Assembly: GCF_020740795.1 (NCBI RefSeq)
Contig: NC_067310.1
Location: 365,940 to 429,939 of the forward strand
DNA: 64,000 nt
Reading direction: 5' to 3'
DNA from: Apus apus
Taxonomy: Eukaryota
Shown: in pieces, positions 1 to 59,694 of the stretch
Numbering within the stretch: the stretch's first letter is position 1
Layout: each line of letters begins with the position of its first letter
Made by a program: the position numbers and the translations under genes
The notes under the pieces: model-generated
Seen by the model: the letters and a program-made list of their open reading frames with translations, nothing else
What the model was told of the DNA's origin: nothing
The model's database searches: none

Positions 1-907
1 GGGGGAGGGAGAAAGCCCATGCGTTGAGTTGACCACAGGTAATAACTGAAGGATAAGAAAACCATGATCTTAATAATAAAGAACATGTGACGACAAGGAA
101 AATGGTGACAGAGAGAGAGAAACAAAACCCAAGACAGACCTGTGATGCACAGGAGCTTCCGGCTGCTGTTCAACCACGACCAGCCCCAGCCACCCCCCAG
201 CCCCCACCAGCTGCCCACAAACCCCAGGGAGGTGCAGGCAGCACAAGGGCTCATCCCATGCCCACACTCAGCAGCTGCCCCACTGCAACGCCCGGGCAGC
301 CCGGGACTCGCTCCAGCAATGGCGAGCTCCACGGACACTGCCCACTCCTGGGCTCTGCATCCTCTCCAGGGCCTCATCAGCCCTGCCCTCTTCCAGAGCA
401 TCTCGGGGATGGCACCAGGGGACAAGAGGCTGTGCCTCATGTCACGGGTGCTCCCAGCGCAGGAGGAGGGAGACGAGAGGTTGGGCATCAGGTCCAAGCT
501 TAGGTGAGACCCAACTTGCACGCAAAGCCACGCGGGGTTGAAGACAGGCTCCCAGCCACCCGTTCCCCTTCTGCCATCCCAGAGCCTGAGCAGACCTCTG
601 GAAGTCTCCCTCCTCCTGCCACCCGCTGGGGTCCCTCTTCCTCGCTGGGGTCCCTGTCCCTTCCCGGGGTCCCTTTCTGGGGTCAGGGAATGGGACTCAC
701 CGCTGTCTTTGTCACCTTCCCTGGGCTGCAACAGCTCTGTGCAGCCGGCTCCTGCCCTGCCTTTTGTCCCGTGTCAGAGGAGCCAGCCCCTCTCCTCCTA
801 TTCCCGGAAATGAGGGTGAGTCAGAGCGAAAGTGAAAGGGATAAGGATGGGAGAGGAAACGCCTCAGGCGCCTCAGCATCAGAGCACGAAAACTCGGAGC
901 AGACCAG
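1..907 (+). repeat. GBP promoter block 'a' (one of 5 copies)
   Basis: Near-identical copies at 6200-7107 (-), 24746-25673 (-) and 53474-54400 (+), plus a partial copy at 23535-23835 (-). The block runs from ~0.76 to ~1.7 kb upstream of each GBP ATG. Confidence 0.85.
801..837 (-). promoter_or_regulatory. ISRE plus GAS module of a GBP copy lying just left of the window on the minus strand
   Basis: ttcccggaa at 801-809 and gaaagtgaaa at 828-837, in the same orientation as the copy-3 promoter. Confidence 0.45.
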
Positions 908-2089
908 ACAAAGATGGTTAAATAACTGAAGGTATGAGAATGAAAAACAAGAGCTGCAAAAGCAAAGCCTCAGCAGCTCCCACCCAGCTGCCCAGCCAGT
1001 TGGAGAGTGACACCTGCCTTGGGACACATTCCCCAACCCCTTCTTTGATCCCACTTTATTATTGCCCAGCATGACATCAGCTCGTGTGGAAGGATAGTGA
1101 GATACTGGAGCAGCTTGTGCAGAGAGGCTGAGGATGGCCCAGAGAGGCTGTGGATGGCCCCGAGAAGTTGGAGATGGCCCTGTATGATTTCTGAAGGTCC
1201 TGGATCCACAGTCCCCTCTTGCAGACACTGTTCAGCTCTTGTTGCACCCATGTCCCTTGCACTGCCCTGGCACACAGACCTGCTCCTCTGCCCCCCCTTG
1301 AACCAGCCTCACCCCCATCTCCCATGAGCAGCTCGTTTGCCCATCATCCCCTCCTGGACATGGCCCTGGCCCTCTTCCCCTCATGTCCTGGAGCCCTTGG
1401 AGATCCATCCTCCCCCTGAACATCCCAATATCCCCTTGCAGAAATACCAGCTCCCCGTTCCCCTCCTGTCCCCATCCTCCCCATTTTCCCTTGCCTGTTT
1501 CTTTCCATATTGTGTGGGCACACCCCTCTGACCAGGGGGTTGTTTACTTCATCCTTGAGTCTTCCTCACAGGAACCTTTGGCCGAGTTCTGTCTCTTCTC
1601 CCATTTCTCTCGGCTGACTCTGCAGCAGAACTGGTTACAGGAGGCATCCCTAGTCTCAGCTGAACGGCTTCTTTCTTCTTCAAGGACCCTTGTATTTCTT
1701 CCCTAAAACTCCAGACCAGCTCACACAAAAGGCTTTCACACTCACTAGCAGTAGGCCCAGATGAGAGATTTACACCCTACAAGCAGTGAACTGTTTGAAG
1801 TCAGAGTTTGGGTAATGCTCTGTTTCATGCAGCTGTCCACGATCACAAGAAATGCTTCTACAGATACATGAGCAGCAAAAAGAGGACTAGGAAGAATGTC
1901 CACCCTTTTTCAGATGCAGCAGGAAACACAGTGATGAGGGGTGAGGAGAAGGCTGAGGTATCAACGGCACCTTTGCCTCAGTCTTTAGTGGTAGGACCAG
2001 TTCCTTGCTGGGTGCACAGGCCCCTGAACTGGCAGACAGGGACACAGAGCAGTTTGAAACCTCATCATCCAAGAGGGGACAGGCAGTGA

Positions 2090-2365
2090 CCTGCTGCACC
2101 ACTTGGATGTCCACAGGTCCATGGGGCCGGATGGGATCCAGCCGAGGGGTCTGAGGGAGCTGGCAGAAGTGCTCCCCAAGCTCCTTTCCATCACTTTCCA
2201 GCAGTTCTGGCTGACTAGGGAGGTGCCAGTAGACTGGAGACTGGTCAATGTGACCCCAGCTACAAGAAGAGCCATAAGGAGGATCCAGGGACTTGCAGGC
2301 CTATCGGCCTGACCTCTGTGCTGGGGAAGTTCTGGAGCAGATCATGCTGAGGGCCATCACATGGT
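2090..2365 (+). mobile_element. CR1 ORF2 fragment
   Basis: HRSMGPDGIQPRGLRELAEVLPKLLSITFQQFWLTREVPVDWRLVNVTP…; mirror copy at 22100-22375 (-). Confidence 0.65.
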
Positions 2366-2811
2366 CCCCTCTCCTTTCAGCCCTCTGCTGACCAAGGTGC
2401 GTGTTTATTTCCATAATGCATGGGCACCCCCCCATATCCCCATGCTCTCCCATCAACATGCCCCCGCCCATGGACCTTCAAAGGTCTCCTCCAGCCCACG
2501 TAATTCTGTGAGTCCATAACTGGACGTGTTCCAGGTCAGGCTGCTCCAGCAGCTTGGAGCAACCTCATCTGGTTGAAGCTGTCCTTGCCCCTGGGCAGGA
2601 GGGGCTCCATCCCGAGGACGGACGGAGCTGGTGGCAGCTCCATCACCCAGGGCAGCAGGTCAGTGGTTGCCATGACACCATAAGCAGCCAATCAGCAGTT
2701 TCCATGTCACCATGATGTCACCATGGGCTGCCCAGGGGTATCCAAGGGGCCACGGGGTGGTGTGTCTTACACTCTGGAGAAGCTGTCGCCCCTAAGAAGC
2801 AACTTGCCAGC

Positions 2812-2884
2812 ATGAGGTGGACTGAGGTGGAGTTCTGGGATGGGATGGAGCCCACTTTCATGATGCCCAGCATCACAGCTGAAG
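2812..2884 (+). CDS. CCDC81-like exon 1
   Basis: ATG at 2812, donor gtacag at 2885. Confidence 0.5.
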
Positions 2885-4843
2885 GTACAGCCCTCCAGCC
2901 GCTGCAGGAACGTTGTGGCGAACAAGGGTGGCACTGCAGCCATCTCAGGGGTGTCACTGTCTGGGCATGACACTGGGCATCTGCCACGGCAGCATGGCTC
3001 GGGAGATAGTGGAGGGCTGAGAGCTGGTGGACATGGAGGATGACCTGGTTCTCCTTTGCTTTCCAGAGCGAACAGCCATCTGGGACACGGTGGCTGGCTC
3101 CATTCAAGATCAGCTCCTGCTGCACAAGGTAGGTCAACACCTACATCCTCCTCATCCACCCAGAGGGGTGGGAAGTCCGCGTGGCCCCAGAGCATGCCCC
3201 GCAGTTCCTTTTCACGTCCTCCAAAAAGCAAGAAACTCACCCCAAAGGTCCCCACCCATGAACAAACAAGCCATGTGGTGTCACCTCTGGCAGGTGGTGT
3301 TGTGACAAAGGCTGGTCCTGTTTTCTGGGGACCTCCCAAATGCTTTTTTGGAGGAGAAAGGACTCGGCATGACCAAAGCACTCCCCACTGCCCCAGCTCA
3401 TGCCTCTGAAGAGCAGGAGTGGGCAGGATCCAACCTGAAGCACCATCCCTGGTCAGGCCCACCTCTAGATTTTCCCTCTGCACAATCTTCACCCTTTGGC
3501 TGTTCCGCTCTGCTCCAGGGGCTCCGAATTCCCAGCCTTGGCTCCTTTGACGCTGTCCCCAAACAGATCCAAGTTGGGGGTGAGGTTGTGACCATCCAGA
3601 GGCCTGTGTTTCACCTGGCCAGGAACCTCGTGGTTGTCCACAACCTACGGGACAACAAGTCCTACCTGCCTGGTAAGATGGTGAATGAAATCTCGGATGA
3701 TTGCATGGTCATTGCGTCCCATCCCTGGGTCTGAAACACCAGCAGAAGCTCCACAAGGTGAGCATCTCCATCCCTCTTGTGTGTTCTTGCAGGCAACAAG
3801 GAGCTGGAACCCCTCAAATGCTCCAAGGTGGCCACAGCCATCTCTGTGTCCCGACGGAAAGTGGAGGGCTGCATCCAAGGCACCGTGTCCCTCCTCTCTC
3901 ACTGTCTGGGGAAGGGGAAGAACGTCTCCCTCATCCTGAAGGGTGCTGGGGTGCTCCTCATAGAGGGCAGCAAGGTGCAAATGAAGTTCTACTATGACTT
4001 CCTGGACAGGATGTCTGGGAAGGAGAACTTGGAGAAAGCTGTTTCCCAGGTGAGCGTGTGGGTTTCTCCGTGGGGTGGGCAGTCCCACGGCAGTGTCCCA
4101 GCACTGCTGGCATGTGGCCCACCAGGACACGGCCACTTGGGCCAGGCGAGATCTATGGTGCTACCAACAGCTCTCACTCCTTTGACATTGAGGGCCTCAT
4201 CCCTGCTGAGGACGTCCTGCCATCTTTGTGCTCCTCCACTGCAGGTCCCCCAGCTGCTGAACATGACTGTGTCCCCGGTGGTGCCCGTGGCCTCACTGAC
4301 TTTCTCTGGCCATGTCATCATCTTTCCCGAGTGAGTATGTTGGTGGCTGGAGCCACTCTTTGTCATAGATGTCCAAGGTAGCGTTTGCTCCTCATGATGA
4401 CATGTGTCCTCCCATGGGGACACAAGGCAGCGACTCTTGTAGCTGTCCTGGGGTTGTAGTTGCTCCTGTGAGGCTGATGTGATGGGAAAGACAGAGGAAT
4501 TTAGGTGACACTTTCTTCTCCTGGTGTCCTGGAATCCTTTGTTGGGTGACTGCACTTCCTGGGATGGTCCTCAAGGTTGGGGCATGGTGGACTTGGGGAA
4601 AACCTGGTGGCCTTTTGGAGAACAATGCCAAAGCCTGCCTGTGAGAAGGAGATCCCAGTGAGCAGCAAGGGCTGGTGGTGCTCTGGGTCACGTCGGTGTC
4701 TTCCCCTTCTTTTCCAGGTTTGAAATGGAGGTTGTGTCCAAACCACCACCCAGGCCTCTTCTCAAGACCTTGGAACAAGACCCTGGTGAGGTCGAGGAGA
4801 TGAGGAGAGAGAGTTTTCCATCTCCTGGACAAGGTAGGAAAGG
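2812..4843 (+). CDS. CCDC81-like (HU-domain) gene, 5' part: at least 6 coding exons; 3' exons not identified
   Basis: Phase-consistent GT/AG exons: 2812-2884 (MRWTEVEFWDGMEPTFMMPSITAE), 3067-3128 (ERTAIWDTVAGSIQDQLLLHK), 3519-3672 (GLRIPSLGSFDAVPKQIQVGGEVVTIQRPVFHLARNLVVVHNLRDNKSYLPG), 3793-4049 (…SKVATAISVSRRKVEGCIQGTVSLLSHCLGKGKNVSLILKGAGVLLIEGSKVQMKFYYDFLDRMSGKENLEKAVSQ), 4245-4330 and 4718-4843. The IW…QL.LHKG…PGLGTF… and VEGC…KV.MKFY.DFL patterns recall the two HU domains of human CCDC81. Confidence 0.6.
3067..3128 (+). CDS. CCDC81-like exon 2
   Basis: Acceptor tttccag, donor gtaggt. Confidence 0.6.
3519..3672 (+). CDS. CCDC81-like exon 3 (HU domain 1)
   Basis: Acceptor ctgctccag, donor gtaaga. 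Confidence 0.65.
3793..4049 (+). CDS. CCDC81-like exon 4 (HU domain 2)
   Basis: Acceptor ttcttgcag, donor gtgagc. Confidence 0.65.
4245..4330 (+). CDS. CCDC81-like exon 5
   Basis: Acceptor ccactgcag, donor gtgagt. Confidence 0.55.
4718..4843 (+). CDS. CCDC81-like exon 6
   Basis: Acceptor ttttccag, donor gtagga. Confidence 0.5.
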
Positions 4844-6013
4844 TCAAAGCAGCTCCCGGCTCCTTTTGGTGACACAGGCAACCAAATTTTCCAGGGAAGT
4901 CGCCAGCCTTGTGTGTCACAACTTCTCTCCTTTCTGGTTCCAGTGGGTTTTCCTGGTTTTCCCTTTGCTCCTGGTCCAAGTCCAACTCACGAAGACTTTG
5001 GGAAAGTAACAGAGCCAAAGAAGAGGAGAATGTCTCAGGTCAGGTGAGGCTGGAGGCTTTGGGCAGTGCCTGGACGGGGTCCCTTGGCTCAGAGGTGGGT
5101 GATGCCCTATTCACAGAAACATTCAAGGTCAGGTTGGACAGGGGGCTCGGAGCAACCTGGTGTCGCGAGCCGGTATCGGGGGCTCCCGGCTGCCCCCCCA
5201 ATGTGGAGGGGTTTGTGAATGAGCCCGAGGGTCACACGTGGTGCTGCCTCTCACAGGGGAACGGCCGCTGTGGGACCGTGTTTTAGAGTGGAAGTTAGAA
5301 AGCATTAGGTAATGCAAAAAGTGCTGTGCCCTTAAAGCGTTGTGTCTGTGAGAGGGTTGTGGATCAAAGGAAAGGAAGCGTGACCCCCCTGTCCAGCCAG
5401 TGTTACTGTCCAGAGCCACTTGGCACCATGAGCCCCAAGTTAGGGCGGTAACTAGCAGGGCAATGCAGAACTTGTTGCCCATCCTTCCTGTCTTGTACCA
5501 CATCTGTTGTTTTGGTTTCATTTGTCCTTGAGCAGCAGGCCTGGTTTTGGTCCATTAGCTGGGTATAATCAGCAGATTTATGAGGGGAAGAAGAAGAACA
5601 GTGTCCCACACCTGGTCTTGTTGACGATGTCCTTGCCCATGGTCTAGCTGGACCTTCACAGTTCCTTCCAACCTCAAACACTCTGTGAGTCCATGATCAG
5701 AAGATTGCAAAGTCAGGTTGGATGGGGCTTGAAGTTACCTGGTGTGGTTGAAGATGTTTCTGCTCATTGCGGGGGCTTGGACCAGATGGACCTGCAAAGA
5801 TCCTCTCAACCCCCATGTGGCTCTCAGGGCAGGCAGGATGCAGCCTCAAGCCATCATGTCCTCAGGCAGATCTCTCCCATTGTGTCTTTGCAGGAAGCAA
5901 CTGGTGATATCGCGGGATTCCTCTGCCAAAAAGCAGCTGGTGACCAGCCAAGCCAAGGGCAAGCCTGCTTCCAAAGGCCGAGCATCGAAGCAGGTGGTGA
6001 AATCTGAGAGCTA

Positions 6014-6118
6014 CAGAGGAGGAGGAGGACGAGGAGAAGGAGGAAGAAAAGAAGGTGGAGGAGAAGGAGAGGCCAGGAGGACCAGGAGCAGGAGGGCAAG
6101 GAGGAGGGGAAGGCTGGG
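6014..6118. repeat. Purine-rich (GGA/GAG)n simple repeat
   Basis: aggaggaggaggacgaggagaaggaggaag…; unique to the upstream flank of the copy-1 promoter. Confidence 0.8.
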
Positions 6119-6269
6119 TGGAGAAAAACCTTGCTTAAACAGCAGTGCCGAAGACAACAAAGGCCCTGCCCAGCCATTCCCAGCCAGCCTTGATTTTTTT
6201 TGGTCTGCTCCGAGTTTTCGTGCTCTGATGCTGAGGCGCCTGAGGCGTTTCCTCTCCCATCCCTATCCC

Positions 6270-6306
6270 TTTCACTTTCGCTCTGACTCACCCTCATTTC
6301 CGGGAA
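6270..6306 (+). promoter_or_regulatory. ISRE plus GAS interferon-response module upstream of GBP copy 1
   Basis: TTTCACTTTC at 6270-6279 (reverse complement GAAAGTGAAAG) and palindromic TTCCGGGAA at 6298-6306. A putative non-coding exon 1 follows immediately. Confidence 0.55.
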
Positions 6307-6329
6307 TAGGAGGAGAGGGGCTGGCTCCT

Positions 6330-6406
6330 CTGACACGGGACAAAAGGCAGGGCAGGAGCCGGCTGCACAGAGCTGTTGCAGCCCAGGGAAGGTGACAAAG
6401 ACAGCG
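6330..6406 (+). other. Putative non-coding exon 1 (5' UTR) of GBP copy 1
   Basis: Strong donor acagcg|gtgagt at 6407, downstream of the ISRE/GAS pair. Intron 1 would run 6407-7846 to the acceptor of the ATG exon. The TSS is not determinable from sequence. Confidence 0.35.
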
Positions 6407-7865
6407 GTGAGTCCCATTCCCTGACCCCAGAAAGGGACCCCGGGAAGGGACAGGGACCCCAGCGAGGAAGAGGGACCCCAGCGGGTGGCAGGAGGAGGGA
6501 GACTTCCAGAGGTCTGCTCAGGCTCTGGGATGGCAGAAGGGGAACGGGTGGCTGGGAGCCTGTCTTCAACCCCGCGTGGCTTTGCGTGCAAGTTGGGTCT
6601 CACCTAAGCTTGGACCTGATGCCCAACCTCTCGTCTCCCTCCTCCTGCGCTGGGAGCACCCGTGACATGAGGCACAGCCTCTTGTCCCCTGGTGCCATCC
6701 CCGAGATGCTCTGGAAGAGGGCAGGGCTGATGAGGCCCTGGAGAGGATGCAGAGCCCAGGAGTGGGCAGTGTCCGTGGAGCTCGCCATTGCTGGAGCGAG
6801 TCCCGGGCTGCCCGGGCGTTGCAGTGGGGCAGCTGCTGAGCGTGGGCATGGGATGAGCCCTTGTGCTGCCTGCACCTCCCTGGGGTTTGTGGGCAGCTGG
6901 TGGGGGCTGGGGGGTGGCTGGGGCTGGTCGTGGTTGAACAGCAGCCGGAAGCTCCTGTGCATCACAGTTCTGTCTTGGGTTTTGTTTCTCTCTCTCTGTC
7001 ACCATTTTCCTTGTCGTCACATGTTCTTTATTATTAAGATCATGGTTTTCTTATCCTTCAGTTATTACCTGTGGTCAACTCAACGCATGGGCTTTCTCCC
7101 TCCCCCCACCACTGCGGGGCAGGGACTGTGCAGCTGGGGGGCCTCGGCTTTCAGCTGGGGTTTCAGGCAGCACGACCCCCAGCCCAGGGGCTGGCGGGGG
7201 GAGTGAGGAGCAGACAAGGGCTGGGCGCAGGGTCAGCCCTGCTGAGGGTGATGGGACCACCAACCCCAACACCGTTTCCAGCACAAATCCATGTTACATG
7301 TTACACCAGCATGGGAGCTGGGCAAGGTCAGGCAGCGGGGGATGTCCCCGTGAGAGGCACAGAGGGGGACGGGGGTTGGGTGGGGTTGGGCGGAAGAAAG
7401 GGAGGGAGAAATTCAGGAGCAGCTCCCCTGAGGTTCCGTGTCAGCCCGACCAACCCTTGGCCCGTGCTGCTGTGGCTCTCCAGTCCTTCTCCTGCCCTTC
7501 AGCCCTGCCTGAGGCCATTGCCCCATCCCACCCCCATATTTGCTCCGCAGACTTGGTGCTGGTGATGAGCAGGACGTGGGGCAGAGGTTTCCCACTGTCC
7601 CGCAGGGCCTTCAGGAGCGGAGCCATTCCTGCGGTGGGACACACGGGATGGGCCGTGCCCCTTGGCCAAGTGTCATCAGTGTCTTCACCACAGGGCTTGG
7701 GAGGGGCCAAAGGAGGAGCCGTGGAGGCAGGACCTTGGTGACAATGTGGTCTGCTTGCAAAGATGCCCTAGGAGGATCCTGCCTGTCCCTGCCTGCACTG
7801 TGGGGTGTCCTCACCACGTGAACCCCTCTGGCCCTCTCCTCTGCAGGCCGCCTTTCCCGTCAGCA

Positions 7866-8046
7866 ATGGCATCCACAGTCCACATGCCAGCGCCTGTCTG
7901 CCTCATTGAGAACAGCCCGACAAAGGGGCTGATGGTCCAGAGGGAGGCCCTGCAGCTGCTGTCCAAGGTCAGCCAGCCTGTGGTGGTGGTGGCCATCACA
8001 GGGCCGTACCGCACGGGCAAGTCCTACCTCATGAACAGGCTGGCTG
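7866..8046 (+). CDS. GBP: GBP copy 1, first coding exon (exon 2)
   Basis: Acceptor ctgcag at 7841-7846, ATG at 7866, [61 protein letters not shown], donor gtgaga at 8047. Confidence 0.85.
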
Positions 8047-11000
8047 GTGAGAGAAGAGGTGAGGGAGGTCCCTGCCCTGGACGGCCAAGGAACCTGGCTT
8101 CTCCTACTCGTCATTTGACACAGATGGGAGCCTTGTGTCCTCCCCACAGGCTTCTCCTTGGGCTCCAGCGTGCAGTCCCAGACCAAAGGTATCTGGATGT
8201 GGTGTGTACGTCACCCCCGCCGGCCTGGACACACTCTGGTGCTGCTGGACAGTGAAGGGCTGAGTGACGCAAAGAAGGTGTGTGAGAGGCAGGGTCTGCC
8301 TTTGTGGCTTCCCAGCACCTGGAGGAAGCTCTTGGGGGCCCAGCCATGGTGCCCAGAGTCAAGGCGTTCCCACTGCTCACGGTGGCCTTCAGCCGGTGTG
8401 CTGGGATGGGCCAGAGGCCACAAGGAAGGAGGTTGGGGGAGGCACGTTTCCAAATCCCTCTGCATTTCTGGAAAAGAGCAGTTGCACAGGAAGGAGGGGC
8501 TCAGGGAGCACTTGGGTAGACCCCGAGACTTCAGAGTTGAGGACAAGCCCAGCTACAGACAAGGCATGGTGATGGCATGGGGGTGCGTGTTGCCATGGCC
8601 CGTTGTGTAGGGGCATTCAGGCTCTGGGCATCTGGGGCTCTGCTCATACCTGGGGGACCTTGTTGATCAGAGCCAAGGGTTGTTGTTCCAGAGTGACACC
8701 AAGAACGACACGTGGATCTTTGTGCTGACCGTGCTGCTCTCCAGCACCATGATCTACAACAGCAAAGGCACCATTGACCAGAACGCCATGGACCAGCTGC
8801 AGTATCCTTGGTGGGACAGGAGCACCAGGGATGCCCTCCTCTCCCTGCGTGGTGGGCTAGGGCTTGGCAAATGCCAGTTCCTCAGAGGGCTGCAGAACCT
8901 TCTGCTCGTGCCCAGGGATGTGCTTGGAGACCTTAGGAGCCCCATGCTGTGGGCCTGAGGGCCGAGGGGTTTTCTCCCTCCTCCTTCTGGTGGGTCCAGG
9001 CTGTTCGGCGTCCCCGCCGAGTCTCCCCTCCTCCCTGTGACGTGCTGAGGGTTGCAGGATGGCAATGCCCCTGCATTCAGAGCTGAGGTCCCTGTTTCCT
9101 TAGCCAGCTCCCCAGCTACGTGACAAAGCTGACTGAGCGCATCAAGTTGAAAGCAGCACCCAAGAAGAGTGAAGATGAGCTGGAGGATTCCGACAAATTT
9201 GTCGGCTTCTTCCCGACTTTTGTCTGGGCTGTCCGGGATTTCACACTGCAGCTGCAGGTGGATGGGGAGGAAATCTCTGAGGATGGATACTTGGAGGACA
9301 TTCTGAAGCTCAAGGCTGGTAAGGGGGTGGTGCTGTGCTGCTGGAGACATCCAGCCCCAGACTCAGCAGCCACATTTCAGGATAATTCAACAGCATTCCA
9401 AGCCTGTGAACCTGCTCCGTGTCCTCCTACCCCCCAGGCAGCAGCCCCGAGACCCAGCTCTACAACCATCCCCGGGAATGCATCCGCCAGTTCTTTCCGG
9501 AACGCAAGTGCTTTGTTTTTGACCAACCAGCTGGGAGGAGGAAACTGCCCCTCTTGGAGGAACTTCCGGATGATGAGCTGGATCCTGATTTCCAGCAGCA
9601 GGTAGAGAAGTTCTGCAGCTACATCTGGGAGAAGTCTCCGCCTAAGACCGTCCCAGGTGGCCACATCGTAACTGGGAACCGTGAGTACTGCTGCCCAAGG
9701 GGTGGGTGGCCAGCGGCTCTTGGGACTGTGTCTGGGGGAGGATCAAGTGCCAAGGGTGCGGGTGGGGAAAGGGAGAGATGTTTTCCTGCCTGCTGTCCCT
9801 GCCCCGGGGTTTGGAGCTTTGGGACGTTGCAGGTGTGGTGGGAAAGAGTTAGGAAAAGCAGTTCAGGAGGCCTGGGGCAGGGAGGCAGCGTGGGTACAGC
9901 AGGAGACAGGGCTGGGTGGGTGCCTGCGTTTGTCGGGGCTGCAGATCTCTCGCCCTGGGTCCTCCTTGGCAGTGCTGGGGAAACTGGCAGAGACCTACCT
10001 GGAGGTCATCCGGAGCGGGGCAGTGCCATGCCTGGAGAGCGCGGTGTTTGTCCTGGCCAAGGCTGAGAACGCGGCGGCGGTGGAGGAGGCTGTGAGGTTG
10101 TACCAGGAGCTGATGGAGCAGCGGGCGAAGCTGCCAACGGAGACTCTTGAGCAGCTGCTGGAGCTGCATGCCCAGTGTGAGCGGGAGGCCCTGGAGCTGT
10201 TCATGGCACGGGCATTCAAGGAGGACATCGAGCACGCCCAGATCGAGCTCGCGGTAGGTGGTGCCCAGCCCAGCCAGAATTCCCCCAGGGACACCGTCAT
10301 CCCCTTGGCTTTGGGAACATGGCATGGTCCTGGGCAGGGGGCTCTCCCTGCCTCCTGCCAGAGGACACGGCCATGCCCTCTCCAGAGGAGGCTCGGCCCC
10401 AGCGCCTGCCCTGGCTGTCTGGCAGCCGTCCCTGCTGTGCCCCCTCTTCTCCCAGGGTCAGCAGCTGTGCTGCCAGGGGACGGAGCTCAGCCCTGGCCCC
10501 TCTCCTGCGGCAGCCCCGCTGCAGCTCTGCCCCGCCTGGAAGCTGCAGCCTTCCATGCTCCCCCTGTCCTGCCTGCTAATGCTGTCCCTGGGTGCTGTGA
10601 AGCCTGTGGTCCCTGGCCTGTCCCCTGCTCCTGGGCACCTTTGGCCAGAGATGTCCGTGGGCGTGCAATGCCCTCCCCATCTGTCCCCTCCCAGCTGTTC
10701 ACCCCACGGACGGGAGATCCCAATTCCCACATCCTCCTGGCTCGATGTGTGCCCTGCCTGAGCGCGGTGGGTGCAGCTCAGCCAGGGCTGATGTCTTCCC
10801 TCTGCCCCTGCACGCACAGCGCCGGGTCGAGGCCATCAAGGTGAAGTTCTCCATGGACAACGAGCAGGCATCCCAGGACAAGTGTGAGGCTGCTCTCACG
10901 GACCTCTCCCAAGCCCTGGACAAACGAGTCCGTGATGGTGTCTACAGCGTGTCAGGGGGTTACGAGCAGTTCAGAGGAGACCAGCAGGCAGTGGTGGAGA

Positions 11001-24872: not shown

Positions 24873-24895
24873 TAGGAGGAGAGGGGCTGGCTCCT

Positions 24896-41643: not shown

Positions 41644-41724
41644 TACACACACAGACACACAGACACACACACAGACACACAGACACACAGACACACAGAC
41701 ACACACACACACACACACACACAC
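41644..41724. repeat. (CA)n/(CAGA)n microsatellite
   Basis: acacacacagacacacagacacac…acacacacac. Confidence 0.9.
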
Positions 41725-42770: not shown

Positions 42771-42893
42771 AGAAGCATAAAAATTCAAATTCCAGCATTA
42801 TCAGTCATCTAGATGGGAAACCTTGGGATACTTAAAAGAGAACTCATTGAAGGAAAAAAAATCAGAAAAAAGGAAAATTGGCATAATTGTGAC

Positions 42894-43930: not shown

Positions 43931-44081
43931 CTGTGCGTGCAGGGGCAGAGGGAAGACACCAGCCCTGGCCGAGCCGCACCCACCGCGCTCAGGCAGGGCA
44001 CACATCGAGCCAGGAGGACGTGGGAATTGGGATCTCCCGTCCGTGGGGTGAACAGCTGGGAGGGGACAGATGGGGAGGGCG

Positions 44082-46022: not shown

Positions 46023-48653
46023 TTCAACTCCAGCTCGTACTGAAACTCTGGCATGTCTGGCACAGCAGCACTGAGCGGTGGTGTCACCTCATTCAGGACA
46101 TGATAGTCCACTGTCAGCCTCTGGCATTAGGGTGAACTGCGCACCAGTGTCCACCAGGGCTTTATACTTTTGTGGTTCTAATGTGCCAGGCCACCGAATC
46201 CGCACAGTCCAGTAAACTCAATTGTCTCTTTCCTCCTCCTGGCTAGAGGCAGGGCGCCTCTCATGTTGAGCATTTGAGGTTGAAGCACTGAGATCTAGAG
46301 TCCGTCCATTCTGGTTGGAGGACTGGTTGCTGGAGACTGGAGCAGCCCTCTTCCTGGAAGGACCTTCTCCTGTAATTGTTCCGCCTAGCAGCTCATGTAT
46401 GTGTACGTGGAGAACAGCAGTGGGTTTCTTGTCCCAGGTTCTCATGTTCTCTTTATAATGGTCATGCAAGAGAGATCACGGGTGGCGTGGAAGTGGGTCC
46501 CGTCCCTCTTGCTGCTGCCTCGTAGCAGGACGTCTCTTACTGGGAGGACAGGTCAGTGGATCAGCTCCCCTTCGCTGCCTTGGGGACACCTGTTGGTGCC
46601 CACTCATGGCAGGGACAAGGCCTGACGGCAACTCACCTGTCACCACATCCCAGGTGTCCAGGGCTTGGAGGGAATGTCTGCTGGTCCTAAAGGGCAAGGG
46701 TGGGAGCCGGAGAGCACTGCTAATGCAGCTCAGCAGCTGAGGACCTGGTGCTGGCAGCGGGGTTTGGGGCTCTACAACAGGACCCTGCGTGCAGATCAGG
46801 GTCTACCAGGGAGAGACGGGATCCACCTCACCAAGGGGCAAGGGAATCTAGGGATGAGAGGGAGAGAGTATCCAGCAGCCATTTGAGGGAGTGAGGCAGG
46901 GGCAATGAGCACAGGCCCTGGGCTGATGTGACGGGGTGGCATCACAAAACCGACCAACCACACCTTAAGCAGGTCACCTCCAACACTCGTGTGTAAGCAG
47001 AAAAGTGTCAACATGGGACCATGATGGCAAAGGCCCATAACCCTCTCCAGGAGCTCCAGGAGCTGGGGTGCCTCTCCCAAGGGTCTGTGCATTAGTGCAC
47101 AGGGTAGGGGAATAACCGTGAGGAGCGAGAGTCCTGTGAGCTGCTGCAGGGCTACGATGCGGCTGGGATCGCAGAGACGTGGTGGGATGGGTCCCAGGGC
47201 TGGAGTCTTGCAGGGATACAGGCTCTCCCAGTTGGGAGGGCTGAGAGGGAAATCTGCACCAGCACAAGAGCAGGTGGAGGAACTGAGCCAGGGCTGTGTC
47301 CTCAGCAGGCTCCCCAGGACCTTCCTGGGTGAGCAGCGCTGTGCTCCATGGACCTCCCCTGCAGGGATGGAGTGTCCACACAGCAGGAAGGGCCTTCCAG
47401 GGGCTGGTGCCTCTGGGGCAACTGCCTTGGGACCAGCCCCTCTGCCTATAGGGAACTCAGAAACCTCTACATCTTTTACACCTTCCCTCACTGGAACAGT
47501 TGGGGTCCCTGCTTCTTCAAATGAACACCAACAGGAGCAGAGGAAGCGGCCTGAAGTTGCCCCAGGGGAGGTTCTGACTGGCTATCTGGAAGCATCTCTT
47601 TACCCAAAGACTGGTCAGGCACTGGAAGGGTCTGCCCAGGGAGGTGGTGGAGTCACCATCCCTGGAGGCATTTGAGAAACATGTTGATGTGGCACTTCAG
47701 GGCATGCTAGAGAGGGCATGGTGTGGTTTCTGTGGTTTGTGGGGTGAGTGGTTGTGGGCTTTGTTGTTGTTCACTTGGGTGGGATGTGTTGTTCCTTCCA
47801 CTCCTTATCTGGCCCCTGGTGGACAACTGGACCAGATGATCTTAGCGGTCTTTCCAACCAGGAGGATACTGTGATTCTCCTGGTGCAGCTGGAGGTCTGA
47901 TTCCCCGGGGGCAGGAGGGAAGCCCCGTTCTCTATGGGTGACCCCCATTCGACAGCTGAGCCCCACACCACTGGTGGGGTGGAGGAGAGAATGGGCAGGG
48001 CAAAAGAAAGGAGGCAACTCAGGGGTTGAGGGAAGGGCAGTTTAGTAGGCAAAGCAACAGCTGCGTGTGCAAAGAAAACAGAACAAGGGCTGAATTCCCC
48101 ACTTCCCATCGGCAGGCGGGTGTGCAGCCACCTCCAGGACAGGCAGGCTCCATCAGGCGTGAAGGTGACCTGGGAAGACAGTGCTCAGCACGTGGACCCC
48201 TGGTTTGCTCACCACCTCCACCTCCTTCACGCTGCTGCGGGAAGTGTGAGCCGAGGACATGAGCTCAAAGCTCGCCTGGGGGTTTCAGGCAGCCCTGGTA
48301 AGGAGGTCTCCAGAAAAGGTGAGTGGGATCCCCTTTGGCACATTGGCAAAACACTCCCAGCCCGGCCTGCTGGCATCATGGCCTTTCTGTGCCCCAGGCC
48401 AGCCTGGCTTGAGATGTGCCCCACGCCTTCAGGGCAAGGGAGACACCAAGTGCTCTGGCACGGAAGAGGACAACATCTTCATCTGGAGAAGCCCTGTGTG
48501 AATGCACTAGAGAGTGTGGTCCAAGTGCAGGTGGAGGTTAGTTGCATACTCTCTGGCAAGCACCTTGCAGTGCTTTTGAAATGTCACAGGATGGCAGGTA
48601 GGGAAAGCAAAAAGCTCTCTCACTGTGTTACCCCTGGGGCCATAAGGAAATCT

Positions 48654-48836
48654 TCAAAAGCGTTTCGAAAAGGCAGATATGGCCCTTCTCACAGCTCTCG
48701 CCAGGGGTACAAATGTTTCAACCACAGACAATAAATTATGAGTGATGCTGCCTTTTTCCTCCTCCAGCCTACGGGTCACCTGGCTCATGTGGTCAGCTCT
48801 GTCAAAGAAGCCCTCTTGTCTCAGTGCTCTCTCCTC
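48654..48836 (-). CDS. GBP: GBP copy 3 terminal exon
   Basis: Stop complement tca at 48654-48656; protein ends ...[10 protein letters not shown]. Confidence 0.8.
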   Translation of the reverse strand, partial: EERALRQEGFFDRADHMSQVTRRLEEEKGSITHNLLSVVETFVPLARAVRRAISAFSKRF

Positions 48837-51800
48837 CTGGGAAGACAGGCAGGTTGTCACCAAGGGCACAGTGCGTGTCGTGAGAGGGGCACAGAGCAAA
48901 GAAGCAACAAGAGGGACCCTGCTGGGACCCCTGTGCCATTCCTGCCTGCTGGCCACCCCTTGGCACCTTCACTTCCCTCCCTCCCCCACCGGTACCTCTA
49001 ATTTATGTCTGATTATCTTCTCCTGCTCCTCCAGCTGCTTCTTGTAGGAATCCTCCAGCTTCTTTCTCAGCTGACGCTCATGCTCGTTGGTTTTGCGTAG
49101 CTGGTCCTGCAACTTCTGCTTCTCTTCAGCCTCCTTCTTCCTCTGGACTTCCCTCTCCTGCTCAGCTCTCTCATTCTGCTCTTGTGCACCTGGTGACAGA
49201 GAAACAGAGGTGTTGCCAGGGCAGGAGCTGAGCCCGCAAGCCCCCGAGGAGTACTGCTGTCCCTCTCCATTGTGCTTGGCCCTCTACAGGCAGCGTCATT
49301 TCTCCAGCCCAGAAGTTACTTTTCATCTCCTTGTCCTTCTCTGTCAGGGAGCGGTCTGTGTTGCGGATGTGTTGGGCCAGAGTCTGTGTCCTTTGGAGGA
49401 ACTGCAGCAGGACAGCATCAGCCTGTAGGAGCCCAGGGAGAAGAGGAGTCAAGAGGGGAAGCAGCAGCTGGGGAGAACGGCGTCCTGGGGAAGGGGATGG
49501 GACATTGAGCCTTTTGCTCTTGAAGGAGAGCTGCTCTTGGTCCTACCTTCACTCCCTTGCCAGGCAGATCCCTGTACTTCTCCACCACTGCCTGCTGGTC
49601 TCCTCTGAACTGCTCGTAACCCCCTGACACGCTGTAGACACCATCACGGACTCGTTTGTCCAGGGCTTGGGAGAGGTCCGTGAGAGCAGCCTCACACTTG
49701 TCCTGGGATGCCTGCTCGTTGTCCATGGAGAACTTCACCTTGATGGCCTCGACCCGGCGCTGTGCGTGCAGGGGCAGAGGGAAGACACCAGCCCTGGCTG
49801 AGCTGCACCCACCGCGCTCAGGCAGGGCACACATCGAGCCAGGAGGACGTGGGAATTGGGATCTCCCGTCCGTGGGGTGAACAGCTGGGAGGGGACAGAT
49901 GGGGAGGGCATTGCACGCCCACGGACATCTCTGGCCAAAGGTGCCCAGGAGCAGGGGACAGGCCAGGGACCACAGGCTTCACAGCACCCAGGGACAGCAT
50001 TAGCAGGCAGGACAGGGGGAGCATGGAAGGCTGCAGCTTCCAGGCGGGGCAGAGCTGCAGCGGGGCTGCCGCAGGAGAGGGGCCAGGGCTGAGCTCCGTC
50101 CCCTGGCAGCACAGCTGCTGACCCTGGGAGAAGAGGGGGCACAGCAGGGACGGCTGCCAGACAGCCAGGGCAGGCGCTGGGGCCGAGCCTCCTCTGGAGA
50201 GGGCATGGCCTGTGTCCTCTGGCAGGAGGCAGGGAGAGCCCCCTGCCCAGGACCATGCCATGTTCCCAAAGCCAAGGGGATGACGGTGTCCCTGGGGGAA
50301 TTCTGGCTGGGCTGGGCACCACCTACCGCGAGCTCGATCTGGGCGTGCTCGATGTCCTCCTTGAATGCCCGTGCCATGAACAGCTCCAGGGCCTCCCGCT
50401 CACACTGGGCATGCAGCTCCAGCAGCTGCTCAAGAGTCTCCGTTGGCAGCTTCGCCCGCTGCTCCATCAGCTCCTGGTACAACCTCACAGCCTCCTCCAC
50501 CGCCGCCGCGTTCTCAGCCTTGGCCAGGACAAACACCGCGCTCTCCAGGCATGGCACTGCCCCGCTCCGGATGACCTCCAGGTAGGTCTCTGCCAGTTTC
50601 CCCAGCACTGCCAAGGAGGACCCAGGGCGAGAGATCTGCAGCCCCGACAAACGCAGGCACCCACCCAGCCCTGTCTCCTGCTGTACCCACGCTGCCTCCC
50701 TGCCCCAGGCCTCCTGAACTGCTTTTCCTAACTCTTTCCCACCACACCTGCAACGTCCCAAAGCTCCAAACCCCGGGGCAGGGACAGCAGGCAGGAAAAC
50801 ATCTCTCCCTTTCCCCACCCGCACCCTTGGCACTTGATCCTCCCCCAGACACAGTCCCAAGAGCCGCTGGCCACCCACCCCTTGGGCAGCAGTACTCACG
50901 GTTCCCAGTTACGATGTGGCCACCTGGGACGGTCTTAGGCGGAGACTTCTCCCAGATGTAGCTGCAGAACTTCTCTACCTGCTGCTGGAAATCAGGATCC
51001 AGCTCATCATCCGGAAGTTCCTCCAAGAGGGGCAGTTTCCTCCTCCCAGCTGGTTGGTCAAAAACAAAGCACTTGCGTTCCGGAAAGAACTGGCGGATGC
51101 ATTCCCGGGGATGGTTGTAGAGCTGGGTCTCGGGGCTGCTGCCTGGGGGGTAGGAGGACACGGAGCAGGTTCACAGGCTTGGAATGCTGTTGAATTATCC
51201 TGAAATGTGGCTGCTGAGTCTGGGGCTGGATGTCTCCAGCAGCACAGCACCACCCCCTTACCAGCCTTGAGCTTCAGAATGTCCTCCAAGTATCCATCCT
51301 CAGAGATTTCCTCCCCATCCACCTGCAGCTGCAGTGTGAAATCCCGGACAGCCCAGACAAAAGTCGGGAAGAAGCTGACAAATGTGTGGGAATCATCCAG
51401 CTCATCTTCACTCTTCTTGGGTGCTGCTTTCAACTTGATGCGCTCAGTCAGCTTTGTCACGTAGCTGGGGAGCTGGCTAAGGAAACAGGGACCTCAGCTC
51501 TGAATGCAGGGGCATTGCCATCCTGCAACCCTCAGCACGTCACAGGGAGGAGGGGAGACTCGGCGGGGACGCCGAACAGCCTGGACCCACCAGAAGGAGG
51601 AGGGAGAAAACCCCTCGGCCCTCAGGCCCACAGCATGGGGCTCCTAAGGTCTCCAAGCACATCCCTGGGCACGAGCAGAAGGTTCTGCAGCCCTCTGAGG
51701 AACTGGCATTTGCCAAGCCCTAGCCCACCACGCAGGGAGAGGAGGGCATCCCTGGTGCTCCTGTCCCACCAAGGATACTGCAGCTGGTCCATGGCGTTCT

Positions 51801-52714
51801 GGTCAATGGTGCCTTTGCTGTTGTAGATCATGGTGCTGGAGAGCAGCACGGTCAGCACAAAGATCCACGTGTCGTTCTTGGTGTCACTCTGGAACAACAA
51901 CCCTTGGCTCTGATCAACAAGGTCCCCCAGGTATGAGCAGAGCCCCAGATGCCCAGAGCCTGAATGCCCCTACACAACGGGCCATGGCAACACGCACCCC
52001 CATGCCATCACCATGCCTTGTCTGTAGCTGGGCTTGTCCTCAACTCTGAAGTCTCGGGGTCTACCCAAGTGCTCCCTGAGCCCCTCCTTCCTGTGCAACT
52101 GCTCTTTTCCAGAAATGCAGAGGGATTTGGAAACGTGCCTCCCCCAACCTCCTTCCTTGTGGCCTCTGGCCCATCCCAGCACACCGGCTGAAGGCCACCG
52201 TGAGCAGTGGGAACGCCTTGACTCTGGGCACCATGGCTGGGCCCCCAAGAGCTTCCTCCAGGTGCTGGGAAGCCACAAAGGCAGACCCTGCCTCTCACAC
52301 ACCTTCTTTGCGTCACTCAGCCCTTCACTGTCCAGCAGCACCAGAGTGTGTCCAGGCCGGCGGGGGTGACGTACACACCACATCCAGATACCTTTGGTCT
52401 GGGACTGCACGCTGGAGCCCAAGGAGAAGCCTGTGGGGAGGAAACAAGGCTCCCATCTGTGTCAGATGACGAGTAGGAGAAGCCAGGTTCCTTGGCCGTC
52501 CAGGGCAGGGACCTCCCTCACCTCTTCTCTCACCAGCCAGCCTGTTCATGAGGTAGGACTTGCCCGTGCGGTACGGCCCTGTGATGGCCACCACCACCAC
52601 AGGCTGGCTGACCTTGGACAGCAGCTGCAGGGCCTCCCTCTGGACCATCAGCCCCTTTGTCGGGCTGTTCTCAATGAGGCAGACAGGCGCTGGCATGTGG
52701 ACTGTGGATGCCAT
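48654..52714 (-). CDS. GBP: GBP paralog copy 3 (intact, inverted twin of copy 2)
   Basis: Reverse complement of copy 2 (coordinate sum 79146, or 79145 after a 1-bp intronic indel). The ORF-track proteins match copy 2, including the copy-2-type terminal exon. Exons, low to high: 48654-48836, 48996-49189, 49320-49422, 49547-49759, 50327-50607, 50900-51142, 51262-51464, 51779-51888, 52303-52430, 52534-52714. The ATG is the complement of 52712-52714. Confidence 0.88.
48996..49189 (-). CDS. GBP: GBP copy 3 exon 10
   Basis: Mirror of 29956-30149. Confidence 0.85.
49320..49422 (-). CDS. GBP: GBP copy 3 exon 9
   Basis: Mirror of 29723-29825. Confidence 0.8.
49547..49759 (-). CDS. GBP: GBP copy 3 exon 8
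   Basis: Mirror of 29386-29598. Confidence 0.85.
50327..50607 (-). CDS. GBP: GBP copy 3 exon 7
   Basis: Mirror of 28539-28819; acctac|cgcgag boundary checked. Confidence 0.85.
50900..51142 (-). CDS. GBP: GBP copy 3 exon 6
   Basis: Mirror of 28004-28246. Confidence 0.85.
51262..51464 (-). CDS. GBP: GBP copy 3 exon 5
   Basis: Mirror of 27682-27884; boundary cacgtag|ct checked. Confidence 0.7.
51779..51888 (-). CDS. GBP: GBP copy 3 exon 4
   Basis: Mirror of 27258-27367. Confidence 0.8.
52303..52430 (-). CDS. GBP: GBP copy 3 exon 3
   Basis: Mirror of 26716-26843; both boundaries checked in sequence. Confidence 0.85.
52534..52714 (-). CDS. GBP: GBP copy 3 exon 2 (ATG exon)
   Basis: cat at 52712-52714; donor complement ac at 52532-52533. 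Confidence 0.85.
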
Positions 52715-54173
52715 TGCTGACGGGAAAGGCGGCCTGCAGAGGAGAGGGCCAGAGGGGTTCACGTGGTGAGGACACCCCACAGTGCAGGCAGGGACAGGCA
52801 GGATCCTCCTAGGGCATCTTTGCAAGCAGACCACATTGTCACCAAGGTCCTGCCTCCACGGCTCCTCCTTTGGCCCCTCCCAAGCCCTGTGGTGAAGACA
52901 CTGATGACACTTGGCCAAGGGGCACGGCCCATCCCGTGTGTCCCACCGCAGGAATGGCTCCGCTCCTGAAGGCCCTGCGGGACAGTGGGAAACCTCTGCC
53001 CCACGTCCTGCTCATCACCAGCACCAAGTCTGCGGAGCAAATATGGGGGTGGGATGGGGCAATGGCCTCAGGCAGGGCTGAAGGGCAGGAGAAGGACTGG
53101 AGAGCCACAGCAGCACGGGCCAAGGGTTGGTCGGGCTGACACGGAACCTCAGGGGAGCTGCTCCTGAATTTCTCCCTCCCTTTCTTCCGCCCAACCCCAC
53201 CCAACCCCCGTCCCCCTCTGTGCCTCTCACGGGGACATCCCCCGCTGCCTGACCTTGCCCAGCTCCCATGCTGGTGTTACATGTAACATGGATTTGTGCT
53301 GGAAATGGTGTTGGGGTTGGTGGTCCCATCACCCTCAGCAGGGCTGACCCTGCGCCCAGCCCTTGTCTGCTCCTCACTCCCCCCGCCAGCCCCTGGGCTG
53401 GGGGTCGTGCTGCCTGAAACCCCAGCTGAAAACCGAGGCCCCCCAGCTGCACAGTCCCTGCCCCGCAGTGGTGGGGGGAGGGAGAAAGCCCATGCGTTGA
53501 GTTGACCACAGGTAATAACTGAAGGATAAGAAAACCATGATCTTAATAATAAAGAACATGTGACGACAAGGAAAATGGTGACAGAGAGAGAGAAACAAAA
53601 CCCAAGACAGACCTGTGATGCACAGGAGCTTCCGGCTGCTGTTCAACCACGACCAGCCCCAGCCACCCCCCAGCCCCCACCAGCTGCCCACAAACCCCAG
53701 GGAGGTGCAGGCAGCACAAGGGCTCATCCCATGCCCACGCTCAGCAGCTGCCCCACTGCAACGCCCGGGCAGCCCGGGACTCGCTCCAGCAATGGCGAGC
53801 TCCACGGACACTGCCCACTCCTGGGCTCTGCATCCTCTCCAGGGCCTCATCAGCCCTGCCCTCTTCCAGAGCATCTCGGGGATGGCACCAGGGGACAAGA
53901 GGCTGTGCCTCATGTCACGGGTGCTCCCAGCGCAGGAGGAGGGAGACGAGAGGTTGGGCATCAGGTCCAAGCTTAGGTGAGACCCAACTTGCACGCAAAG
54001 CCACGCGGGGTTGAAGACAGGCTCCCAGCCACCCGTTCCCCTTCTGCCATCCCAGAGCCTGAGCAGACCTCTGGAAGTCTCCCTCCTCCTGCCACCCGCT
54101 GGGGTCCCTCTTCCTCGCTGGGGTCCCTGTCCCTTCCCGGGGTCCCTTTCTGGGGTCAGGGAATGGGACTCAC

Positions 54174-54250
54174 CGCTGTCTTTGTCACCTTCCCTGGGCT
54201 GCAACAGCTCTGTGCAGCCGGCTCCTGCCCTGCCTTTTGTCCCGTGTCAG
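54174..54250 (-). other. Putative non-coding exon 1 of GBP copy 3
   Basis: Mirror of 24896-24972; donor complement actcac|cgctg. Confidence 0.35.
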
Positions 54251-54273
54251 AGGAGCCAGCCCCTCTCCTCCTA

Positions 54274-54310
54274 TTCCCGGAAATGAGGGTGAGTCAGAGC
54301 GAAAGTGAAA
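54274..54310 (-). promoter_or_regulatory. ISRE plus GAS module upstream of GBP copy 3
   Basis: ttcccggaa at 54274-54282 and gaaagtgaaa at 54301-54310. Confidence 0.55.
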
Positions 54311-55469
54311 GGGATAAGGATGGGAGAGGAAACGCCTCAGGCGCCTCAGCATCAGAGCACGAAAACTCGGAGCAGACCAGACAAAGATGGTTAAATAACT
54401 GAAGGTATGAGAATGAAAAACAAGAGCTGCAAAAGCAAAGCCTCAGCAGCTCCCACCCAGCTGCCCAGCCAGTTGGAGAGTGACACCTGCCTTGGGACAC
54501 ATTCCCCAACCCCTTCTTTGATCCCACTTTATTATTGCCCAGCATGACATCAGCTCGTGTGGAAGGATAGTGAGATACTGGAGCAGCTTGTGCAGAGAGG
54601 CTGAGGATGGCCCAGAGAGGCTGTGGATGGCCCCGAGAAGTTGGAGATGGCCCTGTATGATTTCTGAAGGTCCTGGATCCACAGTCCCCTCTTGCAGACA
54701 CTGTTCAGCTCTTGTTGCACCCATGTCCCTTGCACTGCCCTGGCACACAGACCTGCTCCTCTGCCCCCCCGCTGAACCAGCCTCACCCCCATCTCCCATG
54801 AGCAGCTCGTTTGCCCATCATCCCCTCCTGGACATGGCCCCGGCCCTCTTCCCCTCATGTCCTGGAGCCCTTGGAGATCCATCCTCCCCCTGAACATCCC
54901 AATATCCCCTTGCAGAAATACCAGCTCCCCGTTCCCCTCCTGTCCCCATCCTCCCCATTTTCCCTTGCCTGTTTCTTTCCATATTGTGTGGGCACACCCC
55001 TCTGACCAGGGGGTTGTTTACTTCATCCTTGAGTCTTCCTCACAGGAACCTTTGGCCGAGTTCTGTCTCTTCTCCCATTTCTCTCGGCTGACTCTGCAGC
55101 AGAACTGGTTACAGGAGGCATCCCTAGTCTCAGCTGAACGGCTTCTTTCTTCTTCAAGGACCCTTGTATTTCTTCCCTAAAACTCCAGACCAGCTCACAC
55201 AAAAGGCTTTCACACTCACTAGCAGTAGGCCCAGATGAGAGATTTACACCCTACAAGCAGTGAACTGTTTGAAGTCAGAGTTTGGGTAATGCTCTGTTTC
55301 ATGCAGCTGTCCACGATCACAAGAAATGCTTCTACAGATACATGAGCAGCAAAAAGAGGACTAGGAAGAATGTCCACCCTTTTTCAGATGCAGCAGGAAA
55401 CACAGTGATGAGGGGTGAGGAGAAGGCTGTCCCCATCCTCCCCATTTTCCCTTGCCTGTTTCTTTCCAT

Positions 55470-59636: not shown

Positions 59637-59694
<58 letters not shown>

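Follow-up and report, generated by a model that had tools for sequence, protein, structure and literature searches.

Repeated GBP1-like genes in the common swift, Apus apus: a probable lineage-specific and very young amplification

Guanylate-binding proteins (GBPs) are front-line cell-autonomous defence proteins, and to our knowledge almost nothing comparable to their turnover in mammals has been described for birds. In muroids, bats, lagomorphs and mammals broadly, GBP genes have been gained, lost and recently duplicated, possibly with concerted evolution (PMC8863968, PMC10864436, PMC10859415, PMC12486975), and chicken GBP1 is described as interferon-induced and antiviral (PMC11545081). We found no literature on the structure of bird GBP clusters or on the swift assembly. 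Here we describe a stretch of 64,000 nucleotides (the window) from the common swift, Apus apus (RefSeq assembly GCF_020740795.1, contig NC_067310.1, positions 365,940 to 429,939 of the forward strand), which holds three full GBP1-like genes (copies 1, 2 and 3), the promoter of a further copy (‘copy 0’), an orphan promoter and a GBP 3′ fragment. Our preferred reading, to which we assign a probability of roughly 0.8, is that one interferon-inducible GBP1-like gene was amplified very recently and in this lineage only.

The swift genes share with the mammalian clusters (GBP1-7 on human chromosome 1 and those of mouse, muroids, bats and lagomorphs) the domain order, the P-loop and the switch I and II motifs, and likewise interferon-type promoter elements and a clustering of paralogs, which in mammals goes with repeated gain, loss and duplication. 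Unlike the mammalian proteins, the full-length swift products have no CaaX box; their C-terminal tail is helix-like and hydrophobic or amphipathic, as it is in other birds and turtles, and their G4 motif reads AVRD instead of T(V/L)RD. The swift copies are also far more alike (at least 99.8% including introns) and partly palindromic, and they carry mosaic patches, whereas the mammalian studies reported no gene conversion by GARD (PMC8863968, PMC10864436, PMC10859415, PMC12486975). The closest non-swift relatives are other bird GBP1-like genes, including chicken GBP1, with about 64-71% identity, equal length and the same AVRD motif. Nyctibius (grandis), Colius (striatus) and Strix also have multiple GBP1-like paralogs on one contig, but each Nyctibius paralog falls into a separate 90%-identity cluster, whereas those of the swift hardly differ from one another; the tail is strongly hydrophobic and transmembrane-like in most other birds, and the swift tails score lower on the Kyte-Doolittle scale. 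In its layout the locus resembles the palindromes (‘amplicons’) of sex chromosomes, with inverted arms of more than 10 kb, more than 99.8% identity, a unique spacer, one gene per arm and differences crowded at the outer arm end. Compared with these, the swift arms are small, their gene is an immune effector and not a germline gene, and arm-to-arm conversion is not demonstrated.

A tblastn search of the window with a human GBP1 sequence, which served as a guide only, returned the GBP exons in four sets, three of them full and one partial; exon borders were set by inspecting splice sites, exon by exon, in all three copies. Each full gene has 10 coding exons with 616 codons plus a stop, GT-AG introns and no internal stop, and the splice sites of all 27 introns of copies 1-3 are intact, as are all promoter motifs. 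This rebuilding bears out a preliminary description of the locus, made from the sequence alone, in its count of three intact paralogs and one fragment and in its statement that all GTPase motifs are kept in copies 1-3, which we aligned to human GBP1. Its reading frames of 612 codons, however, have to be lengthened to 616 codons plus stop, matching XP_051497528 and XP_051497525. Disabling lesions in the paralog exons were looked for and none was found, with every exon in frame between GT-AG introns.

The products match Pfam PF02263 (GBP) at residues 21-281 (1.7e-106) and PF02841 (GBP_C) at residues 285-576 (2.1e-89), and are collinear with human GBP1 structures over residues 1-574 (E 6.8e-181). 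They contain the P-loop GPYRTGKS (G46-P-Y-R49-T-G-K52-S53), switch I T76 and switch II D98-S-E-G101; R49 and T76 correspond in the alignment to R48 and T75 of human GBP1, and G46, G51, K52, S53, T76, D98 and G101 are invariant among 33 homologs. The G4 motif, A182-V-R-D185, keeps Arg-Asp and replaces Thr by Ala, as in all bird and turtle homologs aligned, and Ala, Ile or Val is found at this Thr position in other GBPs (PMC12486975). Given the domain order, the P-loop, switch and G4 motifs and the promoter motifs described below, membership of the GBP family can be regarded as secure at the level of sequence.

The gene models of the locus are already in RefSeq and are not new as genes. In a homology search the best match was ‘guanylate-binding protein 1-like [Apus apus]’ at 97%, with any other bird at 71% or less; the product of copy 1 is identical to XP_051497528/529, and those of copies 2 and 3 to XP_051497525/530/531. 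RefSeq thus holds five single-gene accessions (two of the copy 1 type and three of the copy 2 type) on one unplaced scaffold of 688,416 bp, which suggests two full GBP genes outside the window. Since a leftward promoter also lies at 1-912, further copies beyond the window are likely. What the present analysis adds are the mosaic patches, the two tail variants, the promoter modules, the orphan promoter and a fragment that may have been recruited.

An interferon-stimulated response element (ISRE) together with a gamma-activated sequence (GAS) is the classical interferon-responsive layout of GBP promoters. We searched with the patterns GAAANNGAAAS (ISRE) and TTCCSGGAA (GAS). The ISRE pattern occurs five times in the window, in every case within one of five promoter blocks (1.0 expected; five or more in 0 of 100 shuffles). 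The ISRE GAAAGTGAAAG and the GAS TTCCSGGAA stand 20 bp apart and are perfectly conserved in all five blocks, which in a five-way alignment are identical through the ISRE, the GAS and a putative non-coding exon 1 with its GTGAGT donor. From these motifs the GBP copies are predicted to be interferon-inducible. The orphan promoter stub is a product of a 1.2-kb tandem duplication, and its similarity to the other blocks ends about 40 bp into intron 1; a promoter of this kind, with no gene body behind it, could drive an orphan interferon-induced transcript.

The repeat architecture was obtained from self-BLAST of the window plus a repeat search. Copies 1 and 2 lie in a direct repeat of two parts (6195-12791 matching 24761-31348 at 99.06%, and 12790-17566 matching 31513-36289 at 99.56%), with an offset of 18,566 bp and about 11.4 kb of common sequence. 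The two parts are separated by 164 bp that copy 1 lacks at 12790/12791 and that are present in copies 2 (31349-31512) and 3 (47796-47633); this indel in the 3′ flank is a structural marker separating copy 1 from copies 2 and 3. A tail-to-tail palindrome (24162-35061 matching 54983-44084) contains copies 2 and 3; its arms of 10,901 bp are 99.83% identical (17 mismatches, 2 gaps) around a spacer of 9,022 bp. Upstream of copy 2 stands an inverted duplicate of the 5.2-kb spacer sequence that separates copies 0 and 1 (656-5840 matching 23808-18623, 99.77%), and there is a tandem duplication of about 1.2 kb (22952-23808 matching 24159-25017, 98.95%; region 22952-25367). Positions 1-1955 match 53474-55429, the upstream side of copy 3, directly at 99.8%, and the block 1-912 matches the copy 1 promoter block (6195-7106) inverted at 99.5% and 53474-54385 directly at 99.8%. 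A third, partial copy of the 3′ flank is inverted (56022-58823 matching 18502-15696 at 98.93%, and 58814-59250 matching 13765-13328 at 96%). Two segments, the fragment at 42919-44080 and 58814-59250, reach no more than about 96% identity with the main units and would represent an older round of duplication at the GBP locus.

These comparisons confirm the nested direct and inverted repeats of the preliminary description, including its palindrome of about 11 kb, and the 1-912 block, an ISRE/GAS promoter with a putative exon 1 pointing left, agrees with its proposal that a promoter block at 1-907 implies a minus-strand copy outside the window. Its 18.57-kb direct repeat stands as a direct repeat, but that figure is the offset and not the shared length, and the gene order of -, +, +, (fragment -), -, which it had called alternating, is not strictly so. 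The repeats, whose blocks measure 4.8 to 10.9 kb and are 99.06-99.83% identical, are segmental duplications (at least 1 kb and at least 90% identical), and the long inverted arms, more than 99% identical around a unique spacer, have the form of a palindrome or amplicon. ‘Ampliconic’ is used here as a description and not as demonstrated class membership.

In a three-way alignment of the copy 1-3 units, copies 2 and 3 differ by 17 substitutions in 10.9 kb, 12 of which fall in the outer 1.7 kb, so that the inner 9.2 kb are 99.95% identical. Between copies 1 and 2 there are 73 differing sites in 11.4 kb, and 51 of them lie in three patches; the remaining background amounts to 22 substitutions in 10.7 kb (0.2%), none of them in coding exons (about 3 expected). 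Exons, introns, 3′ flank and CR1 and endogenous retrovirus (ERV) remnants are equally similar between copies (about 99.8-99.95%). The per-copy comparison of exons with introns thus fits the earlier suggestion that near-identical introns reflect either very recent amplification or ongoing conversion. The best explanation for such even similarity across 11 kb, most of it non-coding, is a segmental duplication of very recent date; homogenisation of whole arms could have acted in the palindrome instead or as well. The bird mutation rate is roughly 2e-9 per site per year; at this rate a divergence of 0.05-0.2% would make the copies well under a million years old.

Arms that are 99.8-99.95% identical over about 11 kb, in a sequence taken from an unplaced 688-kb scaffold, are also what one would see if the assembler had created or mis-joined copies and the true locus held fewer GBP genes, and near-identical regions are the hardest to assemble. 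We nevertheless consider such an artefact very improbable. There is no run of N in the window (the first 59 kb of which have 52-62% GC), the copies are separated by substitutions and not by homopolymer indels, and copy 1 has its private 164-bp deletion and a 0.5-kb block with 8% divergence. Furthermore, the unique 9-kb palindrome spacer holds its own older GBP fragment, the upstream junctions vary among the copies, and haplotype duplication would place copies at contig ends in one and the same orientation, whereas here they are nested and inverted.

That the differences between copy 1 and copies 2/3 are concentrated in three short patches is new here. The 33 substitutions of patch 2 exceed a simulated random maximum of 15 per 500 bp and were reached in 0 of 5000 simulations, and the clustering of patch 1 (4 in 20 bp) arose under random placement in 6 of 20000 trials. 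At all 14 sites of the ERV patch, copy 2 is matched by a third copy in the window, and therefore it is copy 1 that has changed there. In exon 4, by contrast with copies 2/3 (DDSHTFVS), copy 1 has EDSDKFVG, the version of the chimney swift and near the bird consensus EDSEKFVL, so it is copies 2/3 that carry the derived version. We infer that the patches, with 8-20% divergence, are short conversion tracts from more distant relatives; the basis for this is the mosaic pattern and not direct observation of conversion. Exon 7 of the 3′ fragment points the same way, being 100% identical to the full genes in a fragment of the 96% class, which may be taken as a sign of local homogenisation.

A unit of about 11 kb has been copied both directly and inverted. 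It comprises the ISRE and GAS promoter, the putative exon 1, all 10 coding exons and a 3′ flank in which old CR1 and ERV sequence is embedded. The resulting arrangement has copies 0 and 1 head to head, copies 1 and 2 in direct order, and copies 2 and 3 as a tail-to-tail palindrome, with the orphan promoter and the older 3′ gene remnant as debris. On the reading that we favour, the copies would have arisen by segmental duplication, through non-allelic recombination or template switching, in roughly the last million years. They were perhaps kept alike afterwards by arm-wide conversion, while short tracts from more diverged relatives would have been pasted into individual copies by ectopic conversion, producing two GBP variants.

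Alternatively, the cluster could be old and evolving in concert, the patches being the only sequences to have escaped conversion, perhaps with selection keeping tail types apart. This reading would accommodate the split into two ages, with the fragment and 58814-59250 at 96% and the units at 99% or more, the homogenised exon 7, and the way in which copies 2 and 3 differ mostly towards the outer end of their arms, as expected under arm-to-arm conversion. We nonetheless think it unlikely, given that introns, 3′ flank, CR1 and ERV sequence are equally identical over 11 kb, far beyond usual ectopic tracts, that the dN/dS of the tail (about 0.8) gives no sign of selection separating the tails, and that the outlier in the ERV patch is copy 1 versus two others, which resembles an import and not a relic.

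The two protein types, copy 1 on the one hand and copies 2/3 on the other, differ at 16 of 616 residues. Four changes from copy 1 to copies 2/3 lie in the G domain just upstream of G4 (E167D, D170H, K171T, G174S), and the other 12 lie within residues 559-615 of the tail. The exon 4 patch was considered as a known pathogen-effector interface and rejected: it corresponds to human residues 166-173, which do not overlap the IpaH9.8 contact surface of human GBP1. In an AlphaFold2 model (mean predicted local distance difference test score, pLDDT, of 70) this patch falls in a region below 50 (residues 126-189), and the tail is helical at low confidence. No CaaX box is present in the full-length products, whose last residues, ...ALSKLF and ...AFSKRF, do not include a Cys at position -4; ‘GBP1-like’ is therefore a label of similarity and not of orthology to mammalian GBP1, and by their predicted ends these proteins fall outside the prenylated GBP1/2/5 subgroup. 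The best 19-residue Kyte-Doolittle mean is 1.6 for copy 1 and 1.09 for copies 2/3, compared with 2.2-2.65 in most other birds, and the two swift types may differ in membrane affinity. Most sauropsid ‘GBP1-like’ proteins of this clade have a transmembrane-like hydrophobic end and no CaaX box, and some turtle paralogs end in CVVC or CVIC. We did not find a discussion of tail-anchored GBPs in the literature searched.

Several observations weigh against the recent amplification with imported patches that we prefer. The donors of the three divergent patches are absent from the window, and the 3′ fragment, tried as donor of the exon 10 patch, was rejected on matching copy 1 at 4 sites and copy 2 at 4. 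Clustered multi-nucleotide mutation could also account for the 20-bp exon 4 patch, and three copies from one genome fit both recent duplication and long-tract homogenisation, which cannot be separated on this basis. Exon 10 has a Nei-Gojobori dN/dS of about 0.8 (14 nonsynonymous and 5 synonymous changes), which gives no evidence of selection for the tail. Finally, neither AATAAA nor ATTAAA occurs within 2.6 kb downstream of the stops of copies 1 and 2 (11930-14500 and 30492-33100). The sequence downstream of these two copies has weak variants only, ACTAAA at +610 and TATAAA at about +2.0-2.2 kb. Considered separately, positive selection in the tail is unsupported both by the exon 10 ratio and by a whole-coding-sequence Fisher test (p = 1).

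The dN/dS of the only diverged exon and the missing canonical poly(A) signals near the stop codons would also suit extra copies that are neutral, short-lived and decaying, with no added function, the two protein types being by-products of conversion; an orphan promoter, a gene fragment and a frameshifted CCDC81-like copy (see below) mark the region as untidy and prone to turnover. This reading strikes us as rather unlikely, since three open reading frames (ORFs), the splice sites of 27 introns and the promoter motifs are all intact and no background substitution has reached the coding exons, though only about 3 were expected there.

The GBP 3′ fragment adjoins the inner end of the right palindrome arm, and all its AG/GT splice sites are intact. 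Its shortened exon 10′ encodes the C-terminus ...GRLQQQNDNTCILF before the stop codon, and the final CILF has the form of a prenylation box. RefSeq isoforms X2 and X3 (591 aa) join exons 1-8 or 1-9 of copy 3 to exons of the fragment, and an AATAAA at 42331, 562 bp downstream of the fragment stop codon, is the one canonical signal to be found close to a GBP 3′ end. The fragment might on these grounds be alive, the copy 3 locus making both a hydrophobic-tail GBP and a prenylatable CILF isoform by exon capture, but we regard this as decidedly doubtful. If it were true, lipid anchoring would have been re-invented by exon capture after partial duplication, and the two full-length tail types would be third and fourth targeting variants.

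Outside the GBP genes, domains were sought by a Pfam scan of the concatenated ORFs of the window. Two CCDC81-like exons lie at 3396-3950 on the plus strand (PF18289, HU domain 2, 7.3e-23 on ORF 3306-3731), and their inverted duplicate at 21068-20513 on the minus strand has a 1-nt frameshift near 20613. In tblastn with bird CCD81 proteins only three, partial ones, matched these exons, which are probably the unannotated remnant of a gene. At 61266-63998 on the minus strand, an ERV pol sequence that is AT-rich (about 40% GC) and has protease, reverse transcriptase (RT), RNase H and integrase runs off the right edge; it has three long ORFs (272, 393 and 218 aa) with at least one in-frame stop between them, and is unrelated to the ERV remnant within the GBP units. 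An (AC)40 microsatellite at 41645-41724, in the palindrome spacer, is a potential length marker, and a (GATA)16 microsatellite occupies 59637-59700. Rfam gave no match to structured RNAs at gathering thresholds in the window. Coordinates are collected in Table 1.

Table 1. Positions of GBP-related and associated features in the window (LINE, long interspersed nuclear element; UTR, untranslated region)
Feature	Position	Strand	Remarks
Copy 0 promoter and 5′ block	1-912	-	gene body left of window
Copy 0 promoter motifs	801-809; 828-838	-	GAS TTCCCGGAA; ISRE GAAAGTGAAAG
Head-to-head spacer, copy 0/copy 1	913-6194		CCDC81-like exons inside
GBP copy 1 unit	6195-12791	+	coding span 7866-11929
Copy 1 promoter motifs	6269-6279; 6298-6306	+	ISRE; GAS; putative exon 1 ends at ~6407 (GTGAGT donor)
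Copy 1 coding exons 1-5	7866-8058, 8150-8277, 8692-8801, 9116-9318, 9438-9680	+	
Copy 1 coding exons 6-10	9973-10253, 10820-11032, 11157-11259, 11390-11583, 11747-11929	+	
Patch 1	9185-9204		4 substitutions/20 bp; exon 4; 4 of 4 alter the amino acid
Patch 2	11614-12107		33 substitutions/494 bp; end of intron 9, exon 10, start of 3′ UTR
Patch 3	16640-16755		14 substitutions/116 bp; ERV remnant
Copy 1 3′ flank	12790-18502	+	duplicated along with the gene
CR1 LINE reverse-transcriptase remnants	~14296-16035		in copy 1 3′ flank; ORFs, Pfam RVT_1
ERV pol/integrase-like remnants	~16325-17346		in copy 1 3′ flank; ORFs, Pfam rve
Inverted duplicate of spacer 656-5840	18623-23808	-	99.77%
Orphan GBP promoter stub	23552-23851	+	
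Orphan promoter motifs	23626-23636; 23655-23663	+	ISRE; GAS; putative exon 1 and donor
Copy 2 promoter motifs	24835-24845; 24864-24872	+	ISRE; GAS
GBP copy 2, coding span	26432-30491	+	in left palindrome arm 24162-35061
Copy 2 coding exons 1-5	26432-26624, 26716-26843, 27258-27367, 27682-27884, 28004-28246	+	
Copy 2 coding exons 6-10	28539-28819, 29386-29598, 29723-29825, 29956-30149, 30309-30491	+	
Palindrome spacer	35062-44083		9,022 bp; transposon-rich: ERV integrase/RT and CR1 remnants
GBP 3′ remnant (exons 7′-10′)	42894-43930	-	right end of palindrome spacer
Remnant exons 7′, 8′, 9′, 10′	43930-43718, 43593-43491, 43360-43167, 43001-42894	-	exon 10′ shortened
GBP copy 3, coding span	52714-48654	-	in right palindrome arm 44084-54983; coding sequence identical to copy 2
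Copy 3 coding exons 1-5	52714-52522, 52430-52303, 51888-51779, 51464-51262, 51142-50900	-	
Copy 3 coding exons 6-10	50607-50327, 49759-49547, 49422-49320, 49189-48996, 48836-48654	-	
Copy 3 promoter motifs	54274-54282; 54301-54311	-	GAS; ISRE
Third, partial inverted copy of 3′ flank	56022-59250	-	

Taken together, the locus is a real but fairly ordinary expansion of a defence family, which leaves the understanding of GBPs and of segmental duplications unchanged. In practical terms, anyone annotating the GBP region, mapping short reads to it or analysing expression there should be on guard. On what is known of the family, the swift proteins would be interferon-induced dynamin-like GTPases that assemble on pathogen-associated or host membranes via the C-terminal tail, and extra, slightly different copies would raise dose and breadth. 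The cluster offers a clean and early snapshot of a GBP expansion in a bird, with copies at least 99.8% alike that already encode two proteins differing in the membrane-targeting tail, and the origin of new GBP specificities could be studied here as in a small natural experiment.

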